41,351 nt of DNA. Origin: a virus. Its lineage: Duplodnaviria; Heunggongvirae; Uroviricota; Caudoviricetes. The notes under the pieces are model-generated. The model searched no databases, had not been told where the DNA came from, and saw only the letters and a program-made list of their open reading frames with translations. The position numbers were made by a program, and so were the translations under genes. The DNA lies in the IMG/VR virus record IMGVR_UViG_2711768015_000005; one strand, written 5' to 3'. Of this stretch, positions 1,863 to 16,793 are shown piece after piece. The stretch's first letter is position 1, and each line of letters opens with the position of its first letter.

Positions 1863-3950
1863 ATGTTTGCTTCAGTTAAAGAACTGGTTGGATTACCGGG
1901 GATGCCGGGAACGGAGCAAGGCGTTCGCTATTCAATCAGGAAGTATGCAACCAGCGAAACCAGCAGACGCCGCAAGAAAGGCGCTAAAGGTTTTGAATAC
2001 AGCATTGACTGTTTACCTGAAGTGACACAGCAGGCATTACGCGAACGTTATGCCCTGCAACTGATGACGCAAAAAGCCGATGAATCACCGGCTCCGGTGG
2101 TGACAAAGGCCAGACGCTCGTCTGCCGTGGTTGATGCGGTGGAGGCATATCGCGGATCACCACAACTGATGGTCGAACGCCTCAATGCCCTGACTGAAAA
2201 CCAGCGCCAGGTGGCAGACGCACGCATTGCGATCGTCAGTGAGGTGCTGAAATTCACGCAACAACCCGGTTTCAGCTGCGCTAAAGCTATCCGGTTCCTC
2301 GTTAACAGCCTGGCACGATCACAACTGGACGAGCGCATTGTGGCAATGGTTGAGACGGCGAACGCCAAAAAGGGAAACAGCCGCGCGTTGAGTGAAATCA
2401 CGCTGAAACGCTGGATTGCGGCCTTTAACAAGGCACAGAACGCCGCTGAACGCCTGCTTTTACTGGCACCGGGTAAACGCCAGGAAATAAAAGCCGAAGA
2501 TATTAACTGGCTGCCCGAATTTCTGGCGCAGTATCGCCAGTCAAACGGCCGACCAATGACCGAGGCTTACGAGGATTTTGTTGCTGAATGGCAGCACCGG
2601 CACGCTGATGAGCCTTATATGCTCGATATCATGCCCTCTTATGACACCATTCGCCGCGCAATGAAGAAACTGCCGGAAGTGGTGAAACAAAAAGGCCGGG
2701 TAACTGGCAGTGAATACCGTCAGCTTGAGGGATTCACGCGCCGCGACTGGTCCAGAATGCCGGTGAATTATGTCTGGATTGGTGACGGTCACGGCATGAA
2801 GCTGAAATGCGCGCACCCGGTTCACGGGCGGCCATTCGCACCGGAAGTGACCTTTGTTATCGACGGTGGCACGCGCTTTGTGGTGGGCTGGAGCCTTGAC
2901 CTGGCTGAAAATGTTTTCGCCGTAGCCGGTGCCATACAGCACGGTATTCGCCATCATGGCAAACCGTTTCTGTATTACTCGGATAATGGCTCCGGGGAAA
3001 CCGCCGACGTCCTGGATAAGGAGATTGTGGGGATACTGCCACGACTGGGGATTAATCACCCGACAGGGATTGCCGGTAATCCGCAGGGACGGGGCATTAT
3101 CGAACGGCTTAACCGCACATTACCGATGCGCATAGCCCGTAAATACCGCACCTATTTCGGGAAAGGAGCAGATCGCGAGACGTTACGTAAAACCAACCGC
3201 GATTTACGCTCGGCATTCAGTGCCCTGCAACAGGGCAAACGGCTGAACGCCCGGCAGCAGTCAGCGATGCGTGATTTACCGTCCTGGTCTGAACTGATTG
3301 ATGCCATTCGTGACGGTGTTGAGTGGTACAACAACCGGCCGCACGATGAATTACCCATGAAGCCGAACGGTAAACATTACAGCCCGGCGGAGTTCAGAAA
3401 AAAACGCCTGGCGGAAGAGGACACGGAAATTGAATGGCTGTCCGATGTTGAACTGCGGGATATGTTCCGGCCGATGGTGGAGCGCCCTGTAAGACGCTGT
3501 GAAATACGCTGGCTGAATAATATTTACTACGCGCCCGAGCTGCGTGACGAGCATGGCCGTAAGGTACTTATCAGCTATGACATTCATGATGCCGAACGAA
3601 TTACCGTGCGCCGCCCGGATGGCAGCGTGATTTGCGAGGCGGTATGGGACGGCAATAAACGCGAAGCCTTCCCTGTCAGCGCGGAATACTACAAACAGCA
3701 GCAGCGCCTTAAAGGCATGCGTAAACGCGCAGAGGAAAAAATCCGTGATGCCGAGGATGAGGTTGTCAACGTGCTGGAGCACAAGCCGCAGGAGCCCTGG
3801 CTGGAAAACATATACCGCCCTGTGGGTAATACGGTGACCGTTCAGCAACCGGTCGCTGACGATGAACCTGATGAAGAATACGAGCGTAATTTCCAGCGGG
3901 GATTGCAACTGCTCGAAGCGAAATTAAAAGAAAGTGATCCGCTGGCCTGA
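1863..3950 (+). CDS. A: Mu-type DDE transposase A
   Basis: 695 aa immediately after ner; central rve-like core with acidic residues in VWIGDGHGMKL ... YYSDNGSGE; size and position as MuA. Confidence 0.9.
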   Translation: MFASVKELVGLPGMPGTEQGVRYSIRKYATSETSRRRKKGAKGFEYSIDCLPEVTQQALRERYALQLMTQKADESPAPVVTKARRSSAVVDAVEAYRGSPQLMVERLNALTENQRQVADARIAIVSEVLKFTQQPGFSCAKAIRFLVNSLARSQLDERIVAMVETANAKKGNSRALSEITLKRWIAAFNKAQNAAERLLLLAPGKRQEIKAEDINWLPEFLAQYRQSNGRPMTEAYEDFVAEWQHRHADEPYMLDIMPSYDTIRRAMKKLPEVVKQKGRVTGSEYRQLEGFTRRDWSRMPVNYVWIGDGHGMKLKCAHPVHGRPFAPEVTFVIDGGTRFVVGWSLDLAENVFAVAGAIQHGIRHHGKPFLYYSDNGSGETADVLDKEIVGILPRLGINHPTGIAGNPQGRGIIERLNRTLPMRIARKYRTYFGKGADRETLRKTNRDLRSAFSALQQGKRLNARQQSAMRDLPSWSELIDAIRDGVEWYNNRPHDELPMKPNGKHYSPAEFRKKRLAEEDTEIEWLSDVELRDMFRPMVERPVRRCEIRWLNNIYYAPELRDEHGRKVLISYDIHDAERITVRRPDGSVICEAVWDGNKREAFPVSAEYYKQQQRLKGMRKRAEEKIRDAEDEVVNVLEHKPQEPWLENIYRPVGNTVTVQQPVADDEPDEEYERNFQRGLQLLEAKLKESDPLA

Positions 3951-11894: not shown

Positions 11895-12122
11895 ATGGAT
11901 GATTCAGATTGTGCTCAGGCAGTCATGGAGCGTGCAACAGAACGCGCCCTTTGTGACCGGCTGACACGTAAGCGCCGGGTGGCGGAGACACCGGGCAGGC
12001 GTGTATGCGCGGACTGCGGGGGTGACATTCCGGCTGCCCGTCTGGTTGCCGTGCCGGATGCCATCCGTTGTGTGAACTGCCAGAACATCATGGAGGCCGG
12101 TCATGTGGGTCAGCATCGTTAA
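11895..12122 (+). CDS. TraR/DksA-family C4 zinc-finger protein
   Basis: 75 aa from ATG 11895; CADCGGDIPAARL...IRCVNCQ four-cysteine motif. Confidence 0.6.
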   Translation: MDDSDCAQAVMERATERALCDRLTRKRRVAETPGRRVCADCGGDIPAARLVAVPDAIRCVNCQNIMEAGHVGQHR

Positions 12123-12414
12123 AGATTATGTCGTGCCGATCCTGTCGGCAACGGCCACAGCCGGGGGGATCTTCATGGCGCTGATGCGCAAAACCTTTGT
12201 CCCCCGCGAGGCCTTTGAAAAACTCTCCGACCGGGTTGAGCGGGTGGAGAGCCGGATTTCCGGCCTGCCCACGCAGCAGGAGGTGAACAGACTCAATATC
12301 GAAATCACCACCCTGCGCGGTGAGCTTAAGGCCACCAATGCCACCCTGAAATCCGTCTCCCATCAGAACGAACTGCTGCTGGAGCAGGCTGTAAGGAAAA
12401 AACACAATGAGTGA
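12103..12414 (+). CDS. Membrane-anchored coiled-coil protein (Mu-like, DUF2730-type)
   Basis: 103 aa; N-terminal TM VVPILSATATAGGIFMAL then coiled-coil-like region. Confidence 0.5.
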   Translation: MWVSIVKDYVVPILSATATAGGIFMALMRKTFVPREAFEKLSDRVERVESRISGLPTQQEVNRLNIEITTLRGELKATNATLKSVSHQNELLLEQAVRKKHNE

Positions 12415-12697
12415 TTTCATTACTGAAGATCAGCGTCTTGTCATTCTGCGGTCGCTGGCGGATTACAACGGCGAACTGGGCGAATCCGTGCTTCAGGACT
12501 GCCTGGATGATTACGGTCACCGCGTGTCCCGCGACACCGTTCATACCCACATTGCCTGGCTTGCCGAGCAGGGACTGGTGCGTAAGCGCACGCTTGTTAA
12601 CGGTTATTTCATCGCTGAACTGACCGGCCGGGGTCAGGATGTGGCGGAAGGCCGCGCCACCGTTCCGGGTGTGAAGAAACCACGCGCAAGGGGGTAA
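12407..12697 (+). CDS. Hypothetical protein (Mu gp26 position)
   Basis: 96 aa ORF between the membrane protein and the gp27-like gene. Confidence 0.5.
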   Translation: MSDFITEDQRLVILRSLADYNGELGESVLQDCLDDYGHRVSRDTVHTHIAWLAEQGLVRKRTLVNGYFIAELTGRGQDVAEGRATVPGVKKPRARG

Positions 12698-12699
12698 CG

Positions 12700-13281
12700 A
12701 TGGATAAGCCAGCGCGTGGCCGTGTACGCAAGGTGGATTTGCTCCCCGACAGCATCCGTAAGCCGCTGCTGGAAATGCTGCGTGAAAAACGTCTGACGCA
12801 GGTCCAGATCCGCGAGGAAATCAACCGTCTGATCCGTGAAGCAGGTCTGCCGGAAGAGCAGCAGCTCTCACCGGCGGCCATCAGCCGGGAAGCCTCCCGT
12901 AATGAGCTGATTGCCCGTAATCTGCGTGATTTACGCGAGCAGACAAAAGCCATGATGGCCGAACTGGGGGATAAGCCGACCGGTGAAACCACGGCACTGA
13001 TTCTGGAGATGTCCCGTGCCCTGATGTACCGCCGTCTGCGTGCCGCCACCGAATCCCTGAACAGCGACAGCGATGTGGATATGCGCCTTATTAAGGACAT
13101 CCTCCTGTCGGCACAGCGTGCAGAAAGTGCCGCCGAGCGCAGCATTAAGCGTGAAAAAGAAATCCGGGCCGCATTTGCTGAAGAGATGGCGAATGCGGTC
13201 ACCGATGAGTTGCGCGGCGTGGATGGCATGAGCGAGCAGATCGAATTCCGTATCAGGCAGATGCTGCTGGGTAAGGCGTAG
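12700..13281 (+). CDS. Mu gp27-like protein, putative terminase small subunit (DUF3486-type)
   Basis: 193 aa immediately upstream of the terminase large-subunit region. Confidence 0.65.
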   Translation: MDKPARGRVRKVDLLPDSIRKPLLEMLREKRLTQVQIREEINRLIREAGLPEEQQLSPAAISREASRNELIARNLRDLREQTKAMMAELGDKPTGETTALILEMSRALMYRRLRAATESLNSDSDVDMRLIKDILLSAQRAESAAERSIKREKEIRAAFAEEMANAVTDELRGVDGMSEQIEFRIRQMLLGKA

Positions 13282-13291
13282 GAGGTGAATC

Positions 13292-13540
13292 ATGGCAACA
13301 GATAACCGCTCACTGATGAGCAGTGCCCATCAGAAAGCATTCAGTCTTGCAACACAGTTACCTCCTGAAACCATAAAGGTATGTCGTGAGTTGACTGAAC
13401 TCAGCATTGCCGGGGAAATATCCCTGGAACAACTGCATTCGCTGCTGGCAGAGGCTGCCACTGATGAGTTGAGCGGCGTGGACGTGATGACTGAAGAGCT
13501 TGAGTCCCGAATCAAAAGCATTCTGACAGGTAAAGCATGA
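13292..13540 (+). CDS. Small protein sharing the C-terminal tail of the gp27-like protein
   Basis: 82 aa; C-terminus ATDELSGVDVMTEELESRIKSILTGKA versus gp27-like VTDELRGVDGMSEQIEFRIRQMLLGKA; stop overlaps terminase start. Confidence 0.55.
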   Translation: MATDNRSLMSSAHQKAFSLATQLPPETIKVCRELTELSIAGEISLEQLHSLLAEAATDELSGVDVMTEELESRIKSILTGKA

Positions 13541-15204
13541 TGAACAAAGCCAGAGAAACGTCGCCTTCACTGATGCAAATGACGCCTCCCCGCAAAATTG
13601 ATCTGTCAGGTGAAAAAGCCCTGCTGGGCGTGGATGTGCCGGACAGCCTTGATTTGCCCGGTGATATGCCGGTGTTTCTGGATTATCAGGCCCGCTGGTT
13701 TGCAGATGAAAGTCAGGTCTGCATCGCGGAGAAATCCCGCCGCACCGGTCTTACCTGGGCGGAAGCCGGGCGTAACGTCATTACTGCTGCAAAACCGAAG
13801 CGTCGTGGTGGCCGCAATGTGTTTTATGTGGGATCAAAGCAGGAGATGGCGCTGGAATATATTTCTGCCTGCGCGCTGTTCTCCCGTGCCTTTAACCAGC
13901 TGGCAGATGCTGATGTGTATGAGCAGACATTCTGGGATCGGGATAAAAAAGAAGAAATTTTGACCTACATGATCCGCTTTCCGAACAGTGGATTCAAAAT
14001 TCAGGCATTGTCTTCCCGTCCGTCAAACCTGCGCGGCCTTCAGGGGGATGTGGTGATTGATGAAGCCGCGTTCCACGAGTCACTGGATGAGCTTCTCAAG
14101 GCGGCAATGGCGCTCACTATGTGGGGCGCGCGCGTGCGTATTATCTCCACGCATAACGGCGTCGATAATCTGTTTAATCAGTACATTCAGGAAGCCCGCG
14201 AGGGGCGCAAGGATTACAGCGTCCACCGCATAACCCTGGATGATGCCATTGCGGACGGGCTGTACCGTCGTATCTGTTACGTCACCGATCAGGAATGGTC
14301 ACCGGAAAGCGAGCAGAAATGGCGTGATGATCTCTACAAAAACGCCCCGACCCGTGAGGATGCCGACGAGGAATACGGCTGTATCCCGAAAAAATCCGGC
14401 GGTGCCTATATCCCCCACGCGCTTATTGAAATGGCGATGATCCGCGACATCCCGATTCTGACGTTTGAAGCCCCGGACAACTTCATCAGCCGTGCCGCAT
14501 GGCTGCGTGAATCGGAAGTTTTAACCTGGTGTGAAGAACATTTAAAACCGCTTTTAGAGAAATTAAATCCCCGTTCCCGCTTCAGCTTCGGGGAAGACTT
14601 TGCCCGCACCGGTGACCTGTCCTGCTTTGTGCTGCTGGAAATCACCGAATCCCTGGCAAAGCGCGAGGTGTTTCGCGTGGAGCTGCGCAACCTGCCGTAT
14701 GCCCAGCAGGAACAGGTGATGATGTACATCCTGACCCGCGTTCCGGCGCTGGTCGGTGCGGCGTTCGACGCCACCGGTAACGGCGGCTATCTGGCAGAGG
14801 CCGCACTGCTGGCCTTTGGCCCGGACATCATCGACTGCGTGATGTTGTCGCCGAAGTGGTACGGCGAGTGGATGCCAAAACTGAAAGCCGAGTTTGAAGA
14901 TCAGAATATCCTCGTCGCCCGCCATCAGACCACGCTTGATGATTTGCGCCATGTGAAGGTAGTGAATGGTATCCCGCAAATCGACAAGGGGCGCACGAAG
15001 GACCAGAACGCAACGGCTGCGAACGCCCGCCGCCATGGTGATTTTGCCGTGGCGCTCTGTATGGCAAACCGGGCGTCATACATGGAGGGCTTCATCCTGG
15101 ATGAATCAGCCTGTCAGGCGCTACAGGAGCGGTCGCGGGCAATGGAGGGCGGTTATCGTGATGACGATGAGGCATATCATGAATTTGATCGGGGGGGCTG
15201 GTAG
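13537..15204 (+). CDS. Terminase large subunit (Mu gp28-like)
   Basis: 555 aa; position and size as Mu gp28; VVIDEAAFHE motif. Confidence 0.85.
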   Translation: MMNKARETSPSLMQMTPPRKIDLSGEKALLGVDVPDSLDLPGDMPVFLDYQARWFADESQVCIAEKSRRTGLTWAEAGRNVITAAKPKRRGGRNVFYVGSKQEMALEYISACALFSRAFNQLADADVYEQTFWDRDKKEEILTYMIRFPNSGFKIQALSSRPSNLRGLQGDVVIDEAAFHESLDELLKAAMALTMWGARVRIISTHNGVDNLFNQYIQEAREGRKDYSVHRITLDDAIADGLYRRICYVTDQEWSPESEQKWRDDLYKNAPTREDADEEYGCIPKKSGGAYIPHALIEMAMIRDIPILTFEAPDNFISRAAWLRESEVLTWCEEHLKPLLEKLNPRSRFSFGEDFARTGDLSCFVLLEITESLAKREVFRVELRNLPYAQQEQVMMYILTRVPALVGAAFDATGNGGYLAEAALLAFGPDIIDCVMLSPKWYGEWMPKLKAEFEDQNILVARHQTTLDDLRHVKVVNGIPQIDKGRTKDQNATAANARRHGDFAVALCMANRASYMEGFILDESACQALQERSRAMEGGYRDDDEAYHEFDRGGW

Positions 15205-16793
15205 TGGGACGCATCATTGATACTGACGGAAAACCTTTCTCCTTTGACCCGGAGATGCAGAGTGCCGCGCTGGATATTCCGCAGATTGCCAGCCGTTATA
15301 TTGAACATCCGGCTTCGGGTATCACCCCGAACCGGGCGGCGCAGTGCCTTCGCGGGGCTGAACGTGGCGATCTGATTGCCCAGTCCGATCTGGCCGCTGA
15401 TATTGAAGAAAAGGACACCCACCTTTTTGCGGAGCTGGGCAAGCGACGTCTTGCCATTCAGGGGGTGCCATGGAGTATTGAGCCGCCACCGAACGCCAGC
15501 GCGAATGAGAAAAAGGACGCGGAAATGCTCGACGAATATCTGCATTCCGCAGACTGGTTTGATGCCATGCTGTTTGACGCCACGGATGCCATCCTGAAGG
15601 GCTATTCCTGCATGGAAATTGAGCACGGGATGCTCGGTAAAATGCACATCATCCGCGCCATCCGCTGGCGTGACAGCGGGCATTTCTGCCTTAACCCGGA
15701 TGATTTGAGCGAACTGCGGCTGCGTGACGGCAGCCATGCCGGGGTGGCGTTTCAGCCCTTTGGCTGGATAGTGCATCAGTCGCGTTCACGCACCGGCTAC
15801 GGTGGTGCGACGGGGCTTGTCAGAACGCTTATCTGGCCGTTCATTTTCAAAAACTATTCCGTGCGCGATCTGGCGGAATTTCTGGAGGTGTACGGCCTGC
15901 CAATGAAGGTCGGGAAATACCCGTCCGGGGCAACACCGGAGCAGAAAAGTGCCCTGATGCGGGCGGTGATGGATATCGGGCGACGTACAGGCGGGATCAT
16001 CCCGGCCGGGATGTCGCTGGAGTTTCAGGCGGCAGCGAACGGTCAGGCCGATCCGTTTGAAACCATGATTTCGTGGGGTGAGCGTTCCATCTCCAAAGCA
16101 ATACTCGGCGGCACGCTGACCACAGAAGCCGGAGACAAAGGCGCGCGCTCGCTGGGTGAGGTGCATAACGAGGTGCGCCGGGAAATCAGGGATTCTGATT
16201 TACGCCAGCTGGCTGCAACCCTGAACCGCGATCTGGTGTATCCGCTGTATGCCCTGAACACCGCCCACGCCATTGATATCCGTCGCCTGCCGCGTATCTG
16301 TTTCCAGACCAAAGAACCGGGGGATATCACCAAAATAGCCAGTGCGGTGATGCAACTCAGTGCGGGGATGGATATTCCTGATCCCTGGGTACGGGATCAG
16401 ACCGGTATTCCACAGCCCACGCCCGGTGAAGCCATATTCCGTGTCCGTCAGAGCAGTAATGAACCGGCCATGCCTGACAGGGAAACGCTACCGGAAAAAC
16501 AGGAAAAGACAGAACAGACGGCGCTTTCAGCCCGACTGCCGGAAGCGAAAAACACGCCGCGTGATGAACTGGACGACATGGGGGACGCGGTGCCTGCCCG
16601 CCGCTTACAGGAGGCCATCGATCCGGTGCTGGAGCCGGTCATTGATGTCATCAGAACGCGGGGGCTGGCGGAGGCACTGGCAGACCTGCCTGCCCTTTAC
16701 CGTGAAATGGATGATTCCCGCCTGATGACGCTGCTCAGTGATGCCATGTTTGCTGCGGAAATGAAGGGGATGCTGGATGGCTCAGGGGATTGA
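15204..16793 (+). CDS. Portal protein (Mu gp29-like, DUF935)
   Basis: 529 aa directly after terminase, acidic C-terminus. Confidence 0.85.
   Translation: MGRIIDTDGKPFSFDPEMQSAALDIPQIASRYIEHPASGITPNRAAQCLRGAERGDLIAQSDLAADIEEKDTHLFAELGKRRLAIQGVPWSIEPPPNASANEKKDAEMLDEYLHSADWFDAMLFDATDAILKGYSCMEIEHGMLGKMHIIRAIRWRDSGHFCLNPDDLSELRLRDGSHAGVAFQPFGWIVHQSRSRTGYGGATGLVRTLIWPFIFKNYSVRDLAEFLEVYGLPMKVGKYPSGATPEQKSALMRAVMDIGRRTGGIIPAGMSLEFQAAANGQADPFETMISWGERSISKAILGGTLTTEAGDKGARSLGEVHNEVRREIRDSDLRQLAATLNRDLVYPLYALNTAHAIDIRRLPRICFQTKEPGDITKIASAVMQLSAGMDIPDPWVRDQTGIPQPTPGEAIFRVRQSSNEPAMPDRETLPEKQEKTEQTALSARLPEAKNTPRDELDDMGDAVPARRLQEAIDPVLEPVIDVIRTRGLAEALADLPALYREMDDSRLMTLLSDAMFAAEMKGMLDGSGD

Follow-up and report, generated by a model that had tools for sequence, protein, structure and literature searches.

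A second gp27 tail on a small accessory open reading frame between the terminase genes of a Mu-like prophage

The window analysed here is the whole stretch of 41,351 nucleotides (nt) given as IMG/VR virus record IMGVR_UViG_2711768015_000005 (Duplodnaviria; Heunggongvirae; Uroviricota; Caudoviricetes), which holds the late operon of a Mu-like prophage. In this operon, an open reading frame (ORF) of 82 amino acids (aa), hereafter ORF82 (13292-13540, + strand), separates gp27 (12700-13281, +), encoding a candidate small terminase subunit (TerS) of 193 aa, from gp28 (13537/13540-15204, +), encoding the large terminase subunit (TerL). The gp27 product matches Pfam family PF11985 Phage_Mu_Gp27 (expect value, E, 3.1e-33; 116 bits) and phrog_426 'terminase small subunit' (E 1.8e-54), and that of gp28 matches phrog_2 TerL (E 5.2e-43). 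ORF82, in turn, belongs to phrog_30922 (E 6.9e-52), its residues 2-82 matching positions 2-82 of 82, that is, the full length of the family. A reading made earlier without database searches, referred to below as the sequence-only reading, had noted that ORF82 ends in a near-copy of the gp27-like C-terminus, and had proposed either that both products bind the same partner, the small one modulating packaging, or that ORF82 is a remnant of a partial gene duplication.

The gp27-gp28 junction and its two tail copies

The near-copy was borne out. Pairwise BLASTP alignment of both products gave an ungapped match of 31 residues between ORF82 52-82 (copy B; 13445-13537, +; LAEAATDELSGVDVMTEELESRIKSILTGKA) and gp27 163-193 (copy A; 13186-13278, +; MANAVTDELRGVDGMSEQIEFRIRQMLLGKA), with 18 identical and 24 positive positions and an E of 3e-10; it starts a few residues upstream of the 27-residue strings given in the sequence-only reading. 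A profile-profile comparison of the two families with hhalign aligned ORF82 50-82 with gp27 161-193 (probability 95%, E 2.5e-8), and at the nucleotide level the two copies are identical at 62 of 93 positions. Low-complexity residues do not account for the match: its Smith-Waterman score is 90, while 5,000 shuffles of ORF82 gave a mean of 32 and a maximum of 63, and 20,000 shuffles of the tail only gave a maximum of 43, none of them reaching the observed score. A chance or low-complexity origin was therefore ruled out. Outside the tail, residues 1-50 of ORF82 showed no similarity to any part of gp27 with either BLASTP or hhalign, and descent of the head of ORF82 from gp27 was rejected, as both methods match the tail alone.

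The gp27 tail follows the consensus A.A[VI][TS][DE]ELRG.DG[MI]SE.LE..I...L.GKA, and ORF82 keeps 12 of the 15 positions that are invariant across the gp27 proteins of Escherichia coli, Salmonella and Mu. The ORF82 tail is changed at V167 (in the window allele), G176 (G176V) and S178 (S178T), as well as at the nearly invariant R172 (R172S), and some alleles additionally carry G173S, or a leucine-to-proline change in the terminal helix. Concerning gp27 itself, its last 13 codons in the window (13240-13278) are atypical, reading IEFRIRQMLLGKA instead of the family consensus LE[AS]RI[KR]G[IV]LLGKA. This ending occurs only together with a slot-gene joint, the slot being the place between gp27 and gp28 (window type and loci L012, L031 and L036), so that over the last 13 residues it is the gp27 tail, not the ORF82 tail, which departs most from the consensus.

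On direct sequence reading, the left-hand joint (13279-13294, +) comprises the TAG stop codon of gp27 (13279-13281), the Shine-Dalgarno sequence GGAGG (13281-13285) and, 6 nt past it, the ORF82 start codon (13292), which is ATG or GTG by allele (GTG in L005 and L006). L012, L031 and L036 have an identical joint. The right-hand joint, read in the same way, is the hexamer ATGATG (13537-13542, +), in which the TGA stop codon of ORF82 (13538-13540) overlaps the ATG of gp28 (13540-13542); such an overlap (UGAUG / AUGA) would be expected of a translationally coupled upstream ORF. The ATG at 13540 is the gp28 start used by relatives, and the window adds an in-frame ATG at 13537 that is not present in them. 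The Gly-Lys-Ala codons that close gp27 and ORF82 (13529-13537 and equivalents, GGTAAAGCN) sit 3-11 nt ahead of the gp28 start and resemble a Shine-Dalgarno-type element. Two other ORFs of this slot, an 87-aa ORF of Salmonella and the 67-aa protein P0012, likewise end in GGG[TG]AAAACAT-type sequences, and the recurring '…GK[AT]' ending may reflect a constraint at the RNA level.

The head of ORF82 has a guanine-plus-cytosine content of 45-49%, vs. 56-60% in the flanks. Neither a sigma-70-like promoter, nor a convincing terminator on the + strand, nor an Rfam family was found in 12000-14500, and ORF82 can thus be regarded as an internal cistron of the late operon. AlphaFold2 models of both products were of low confidence, with a predicted local distance difference test score (pLDDT) of 69 for ORF82 and 56 for gp27, and no fold-based conclusions were drawn for that reason. 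In the ORF82 model, helices span residues 3-22, 25-39 and 45-60, and a loop of pLDDT under 50 (60-65) connects them to a terminal helix (68-79); in the gp27 model, a long helix (128-171) ends within the tail, after which come a loop and a terminal helix (179-189). A Foldseek search of the ORF82 model against the PDB returned nothing significant (E > 1), and a PDB sequence search gave no solved-structure relatives of either protein.

Small ORFs in the gp27-gp28 slot

The head of ORF82 (aa 1-55; 13292-13456, +), a predicted three-helix body, is homologous to ORFs found in Salmonella, Citrobacter, Yersinia and Mu-clade phages, here termed slot ORFs. P0012 (67 aa), from another Mu-like prophage (L012), shares 57% identity with aa 1-56 of ORF82 (E 2.2e-7) and occupies the same slot, after an identical gp27 tail, stop codon, Shine-Dalgarno sequence and start codon; it ends without a gp27-like tail, and about 120 bp lie between it and gp28. 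Three Salmonella lineages also possess a small ORF after gp27, of 69 aa (L023, L024), 65 aa (L020) and 87 aa (L017), the first of which matches phrog_30922 (E 4.5e-5). Further slot ORFs were found in Citrobacter braakii (L025), in Mu-clade viral contigs (L056, L060, L062 and L068) and in Yersinia phage Tongde. In a joint alignment, the heads are colinear and share the motif …L.SAH.KAF…C…QL. ORF82 belongs to this family, since it adjoins gp27 downstream and has the colinear head with the SAHxKAF / C / QL motif.

What sets ORF82 apart is its end. The ordinary slot ORFs (56-69 aa) stop 7-10 residues after the head, and ORF82 alone adds 27-31 residues of gp27 tail. With tblastn, a second tail copy was detected in ORF82 carriers only, among about 80 gp27-gp28 loci (a gp27 profile scan of genome contigs yielded two loci, its patterns being too specific, and viral contigs were scanned in its place). 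A degenerate gp27-like tail seen by eye at the end of the Salmonella 87-aa ORF (…AEGLRGAE…VGKTS) was dropped, as BLASTP gave no alignment.

Occupation of the slot varies throughout. Every clade sampled has many loci with an empty slot and others with an occupied one, and slot-less forms are present in every clade, including Mu itself. In L031 (3579-3625) and L036 (2473-2520), all that remains of a slot ORF is its Shine-Dalgarno sequence and first four codons (ATGGCAACAGAC), which run straight into the stretch preceding a gp28 start of the L012 type. This remnant is a deletion scar and shows loss of the slot gene as well as gain.

Slot ORFs of 56-87 aa were recorded in L017, L020, L023, L025, L047, L050, L051, L056, L060, L062 and L068, all unannotated or labelled 'hypothetical'. 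Like ORF82, they had no Pfam, NCBIfam or PADLOC match, phrog_30922 being the only family recovered. In Yersinia phage vB_YpM_Tongde (L003, MT591577), an unannotated 58-aa ORF (2371-2547) lies right after gp27; its N-terminus, MKNNYRAQLISAHKKAF, shares 9 of 21 residues with the ORF82 head (E 7e-5), and together with the annotated 64-aa ORF behind it, it makes up an insert of 409 bp relative to Mu. The L023 69-aa and L003 58-aa ORFs also gave weak matches (E 0.006 and 0.001, respectively) to the same region (about 917-970) of phrog_220, 'minor head protein and DNA pilot', possibly by chance. The slot of L023 and L024 holds a reverse-strand gene of 72 aa (3429-3647), and that of L060 a reverse ORF of about 160 aa. 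Among ORF82 alleles, the first 16 or so codons are a different patch in L004 (2511-2560), P0005 and P0006 (MEKNIRALIISARHEAF vs. MATDNRSLMSSAHQKAF).

The distribution of ORF82 is very narrow. In a library of 5.8 billion proteins, and apart from the phrog_30922 match, it was found in E. coli only, at no less than 79% identity, and the one further relative, P0012, came from an exhaustive HMMER search of 1.84 billion cluster representatives. This type of gp27-gp28 locus is present in 230 of 5,426 complete E. coli genomes; 25 of the 230 carry ORF82, at 29 places and up to three per genome, and in the other 205 the locus lacks it and is exactly 259 bp shorter. The sequence-only reading had set its proposal against the possibility that functional relatives lack the small ORF, and this is what was observed: ORF82 is absent from phages Mu, D108 and SfMu, from the Mu-like inserts of two Stx phages and from about 89% of the E. 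coli prophages of the clade. It is dispensable for Mu-type packaging. E. coli JE86-ST05 (NZ_AP022815; 711093 and 833839 among others) has the ORF82-bearing prophage at three places on its chromosome, and JE86-ST02 and strain 48 have it at two each; such multiple places per genome suggest that the carriers are still able to transpose or re-infect. The slot-less locus L008 (2001-2582, E. coli 2012EL-2448) has a gp27 with an internal stop codon, flagged as a pseudogene, which indicates that some prophages of the clade are decaying.

Selection, origin and rival explanations

Selection was compared over five allele classes (the window, L004, L005, L006 and L007). Over the whole of gp27, 30 synonymous and two nonsynonymous changes were counted (ratio of nonsynonymous to synonymous rates, ω, 0.02), and in its tail six and none (ω 0); gp28 as a whole had 51 and 14 (ω 0.08). 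For ORF82, the counts were 16 synonymous and 24 nonsynonymous changes over the whole ORF (ω 0.46), and five and six in the tail (ω 0.39). The whole ORF differs from neutrality (p = 0.015), while its head and tail segments taken singly do not differ significantly (p = 0.1-0.16). The synonymous to nonsynonymous counts of ORF82 differ from those of gp27 both for whole genes (Fisher p = 1.2e-6) and for tails (p = 0.037), and variable sites by codon position number 8/13/18 in ORF82 vs. 2/0/29 in gp27; nonsynonymous evolution is about 20-fold faster in ORF82. Its frame is open in all five sampled allele classes, and metagenomic variants comprise two in-frame deletions at the head-tail joint (P0003, P0004) and one frameshift (P0010). 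ORF82 is probably translated and under weak constraint, and its tail is clearly not kept up in the manner of the gp27 tail.

The junction lies in a hypervariable island (13200-13590), the flanks of which are 94-98% identical among all E. coli-type loci. When compared with L012, the window shows 95-100% identity between 13200 and the end of the gp27 tail, 90% over the stop/Shine-Dalgarno/start joint and about 75% in the head; the next 180 nt or so are unrelated (about 45%), and identity returns to 97-100% from about codon 20 of gp28. The first 60 nt of gp28 (13540-13599, about 20 codons) are 65% identical to slot-less relatives, vs. 94-98% downstream, the variability ending at the conserved PPRKIDL motif. 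In these relatives, the GGTAAAGCNTGATG junction seen at ORF82/gp28 directly follows gp27, and the block formed by the ORF82 tail, TGATG and the gp28 N-terminus (MNKA.E.SPSL) is colinear with their gp27 tail, TGATG and gp28 N-terminus (MNNAEELSPLL). The ORF82 tail is also closer to the gp27 tail of the slot-less clade (72 of 93 nt, 22 of 31 aa) than to that of its own neighbour (62 of 93 nt, 18 of 31 aa). The synonymous divergence (dS) is about 1.6 between copies A and B and about 0.6 between copy B and the slot-less tail, the flanking genes ranging from 0.08 to 0.25 across the clade. In the loci compared, the type of gp27 tail did not evidently covary with that of the gp28 N-terminus, the same gp27 tail being found with two gp28 N-termini (window and L012).

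Taken together, we favour on balance, and with some reserve, the reading that ORF82 is a recombination chimera and a real accessory gene in a hypervariable slot of an E. coli Mu-like prophage, whose tail is mainly the native upstream context of gp28 under weak purifying selection. A single recombination would have joined a slot-gene-bearing phage (like L012) to a slot-less one (like L001), the slot-less parent probably being more distant and unsampled. On the right, the joint would sit in frame on a short A-x-A microhomology near codons 52-56, where ORF82 reads L-A-E-A, P0012 V-A-H-A and gp27 M-A-N-A. The last 31 or so residues of ORF82 would then be a gp27 3' end still joined to its native gp27-stop/gp28-start overlap (UGAUG) and to a slot-less-type gp28 N-terminus. 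Ribosomes loaded on ORF82 at its strong Shine-Dalgarno sequence would terminate on the gp28 start codon, and in carriers the UGAUG overlap would couple TerL translation to ORF82 instead of gp27. The in-frame joint would have survived because this arrangement was kept intact, the tail peptide being carried along mainly as upstream context of gp28 and drifting, not kept as a second TerS tail.

Several points weigh against this reading. No parental gp27 tail closer than 22 of 31 residues to the ORF82 tail was present in the libraries of 5.8 billion and 1.84 billion proteins, which implies that the donor is unsampled or that the tail has diverged much since the event. The order of events may have run from the 67-aa form to the 82-aa form or in the reverse direction. 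Translational coupling of ORF82 to gp28 is inferred from the UGAUG overlap alone, and the Salmonella slot ORFs of L020 (65 aa) and L017 (87 aa) overlap the gp28 start without any significant gp27-like tail; the tail is hence not needed for coupling as such. Also, an ω below 1 (p = 0.015), together with the 12 of 15 invariant tail positions kept, could mean that the peptide is under some selection, perhaps for binding a partner.

This last point leads to the partner shared with gp27, proposed by the sequence-only reading. TerL is bound by the C-terminus of TerS in both lambda and P22, at its first 23 residues in the case of P22 (PMC9611059), and by analogy the gp27 tail may be a TerL-docking element in Mu-like phages. 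As a TerS-tail mimic, ORF82 would bind the partner of gp27, be it the N-terminal 20 or so residues of TerL or the gp27 oligomer, and so tune or interfere with the assembly of the packaging complex. Such a role would be consistent with the invariant positions kept along with the predicted loop and terminal helix, with a dN/dS of 0.1-0.35 between the ORF82 tail and gp27 tails (dS being saturated), with an ORF that is open in all alleles behind a strong Shine-Dalgarno sequence at ω below 1, and with the position of the tail and the gp28 N-terminus within one hypervariable island. The close alleles argue otherwise, since the ORF82 tail shows six nonsynonymous changes vs. five synonymous ones where the gp27 tail of the same genomes shows none vs. 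six, and since invariant or near-invariant gp27 residues are lost (R172S, G176V, S178T and, in some alleles, G173S or leucine to proline). In addition, none of the other slot ORFs in the 80 or so loci has the tail, and Mu, D108, SfMu and 205 of the 230 E. coli carriers do without ORF82 altogether. We regard the mimic as rather unlikely. A narrower version, to which we would attach still less weight, is that of a natural 'TerS-tail decoy' on the TerL docking site, which would either re-tune the TerS:TerL ratio or sabotage the packaging of co-resident or superinfecting Mu-like phages with the consensus tail; being nearer to the consensus slot-less tail (22 of 31) than to its own gp27 tail (18 of 31), the ORF82 tail could occupy the site where TerS docks.

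The other half of the earlier proposal, a remnant of a partial gene duplication, comes closer to what was observed, though not as an event in situ. Two direct copies of a 93-nt segment, both with a start codon behind them, are spaced by 259 bp, as a partial tandem duplication of the gp27 3' end with a de novo head would leave them. However, the copies differ by a dS of about 1.6 in flanks of 0.08-0.25, on which a recent duplication in situ was rejected as unlikely; the head shows no similarity to gp27 with hhalign and is homologous to the tail-less slot ORFs of Salmonella, Citrobacter, Yersinia and Mu-clade phages, and the tail is colinear with the slot-less gp27-tail/gp28-start block. Duplication in place is accordingly the explanation that we hold for the most improbable of all. 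The same repeats could have acted in the opposite direction, if the ORF82 arrangement were ancestral in the E. coli clade and the slot-less form had arisen by in-register homologous deletion between them: the difference of exactly 259 bp is the repeat period (13278 to 13537), slot deletions do happen (L031, L036), and at the protein level the slot-less tail looks like a chimera, its first 17 residues being those of copy A and 12 of the last 14 matching copy B. Nevertheless, that tail (…LESRIKGILLGKA) is of the family-consensus type that Salmonella has as well, which makes a chimera unnecessary, and no clear switch is visible in the nucleotides (42 matches to copy A vs. 40 to copy B over the first 51 nt, and 30 vs. 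32 over the last 42). Repeats that are 67% identical are also a poor substrate for homologous recombination, and slot-less forms are found in every clade including Mu. We find this reversed polarity improbable, and it bears on the direction of the event only, not on ORF82 being chimeric.

To a similarly small degree, we would credit the view that ORF82 is not a functional protein at all, its frame being open only for the passage of ribosomes to the gp28 start or through youth. Its very narrow distribution, the near-even spread of substitutions over codon positions in codons 17-82 (3/7/7), the lack of a significant departure from neutrality in head and tail segments taken singly, and the metagenomic frameshift and in-frame deletions would all agree with it. 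The ω of 0.46 over the whole ORF does not, nor do the maintained Shine-Dalgarno sequence and start codon and a head family whose position and motif (SAHxKAF … C … QL) are conserved between genera.

As for the remainder of the late operon, a gp25-like gene (DUF2730; 12103-12414) and a gp26-like gene (12407-12697) precede gp27, and a Mu-type portal gene (15204-16793) follows gp28. Variation extends to the gp26|gp27 junction, where P0016 (291 aa, from a contig of 34 kb) has lost the intergenic stop codon and is a gp26-gp27 fusion. Inside gp27, a Ser/Arg-rich antisense ORF of 206 aa (12609-13229, -), open too in L001 and L012, is most likely a by-product of + strand codon usage and not a gene.

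Comparison with known systems

The slot-ORF family (56-69 aa), the chimeric origin favoured here for ORF82 and the hypervariable island spanning the gp27 tail and the gp28 N-terminus seem to be undescribed so far, and no experiments on the gp27 tail came up in a literature search for Mu gp27 and terminase. All three are instances of the well-known mosaicism of phages. If ORF82 is indeed a chimera, it would offer a clean and datable case of mosaicism making a new chimeric ORF at a gene junction, in which a stop/start overlap is able to keep the ORF open. A small, fast-evolving gene family, mostly unannotated or 'hypothetical', is also exposed in the TerS|TerL slot of Mu-like phages.

With the Mu gp27 family (PF11985 / DUF3486; phrog_426), ORF82 shares its last 31-33 residues, which are homologous, and the same GGTAAAGCNTGATG junction with gp28. 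It differs in having no Pfam match at E ≤ 0.1 (hmmscan) and in lacking the N-terminal helix-turn-helix-like and central helical oligomerisation regions; on this comparison, ORF82 would not be a member of the gp27/TerS family, the tail being all that they have in common. Small satellite proteins that bind a terminase subunit and thereby alter packaging are known, namely Ppi of the Staphylococcus aureus pathogenicity islands (SaPIs) and Rpp of the phage-inducible chromosomal islands (PICIs). They offer a functional analogy for the decoy only, since ORF82 is encoded by a phage and not by a satellite, and no sequence similarity to them was found. Were the decoy real, it would represent a novel route by which a phage manipulates packaging, and a case of interference between phages by means of 31 captured residues of a rival's small terminase.

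In the gpNu1-gpA pair of lambda and the gp3-gp2 pair of P22, the segments for the TerS C-terminus and the TerL N-terminus abut in the genome (PMC9611059), just as the gp27 tail and about 20 gp28 codons form one island here. Neither of those pairs has an extra ORF with a second tail. The island matches the location of the TerS-TerL interface in lambda and P22, and its natural variants could help to map the terminase interface of Mu. Concerning phrog_30922 and the slot family, ORF82 resembles them in its full-length phrog match, its colinear head and its position after gp27, and differs in the gp27 tail, which only the 82-aa form of E. coli possesses.

Finally, ORF82 can be set beside the morons and novel joints of mosaic phage genomes, which were reportedly described by Hendrix, Juhala and colleagues. 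Like a moron, it is small, present or absent between conserved genes (25 of 230), low in guanine plus cytosine and bounded by sharp identity breakpoints, with an ORF at the joint that is putatively chimeric. It differs from a moron in the strict sense by having no promoter or terminator of its own, by lying inside a late operon and by overlapping the start codon of the next gene.

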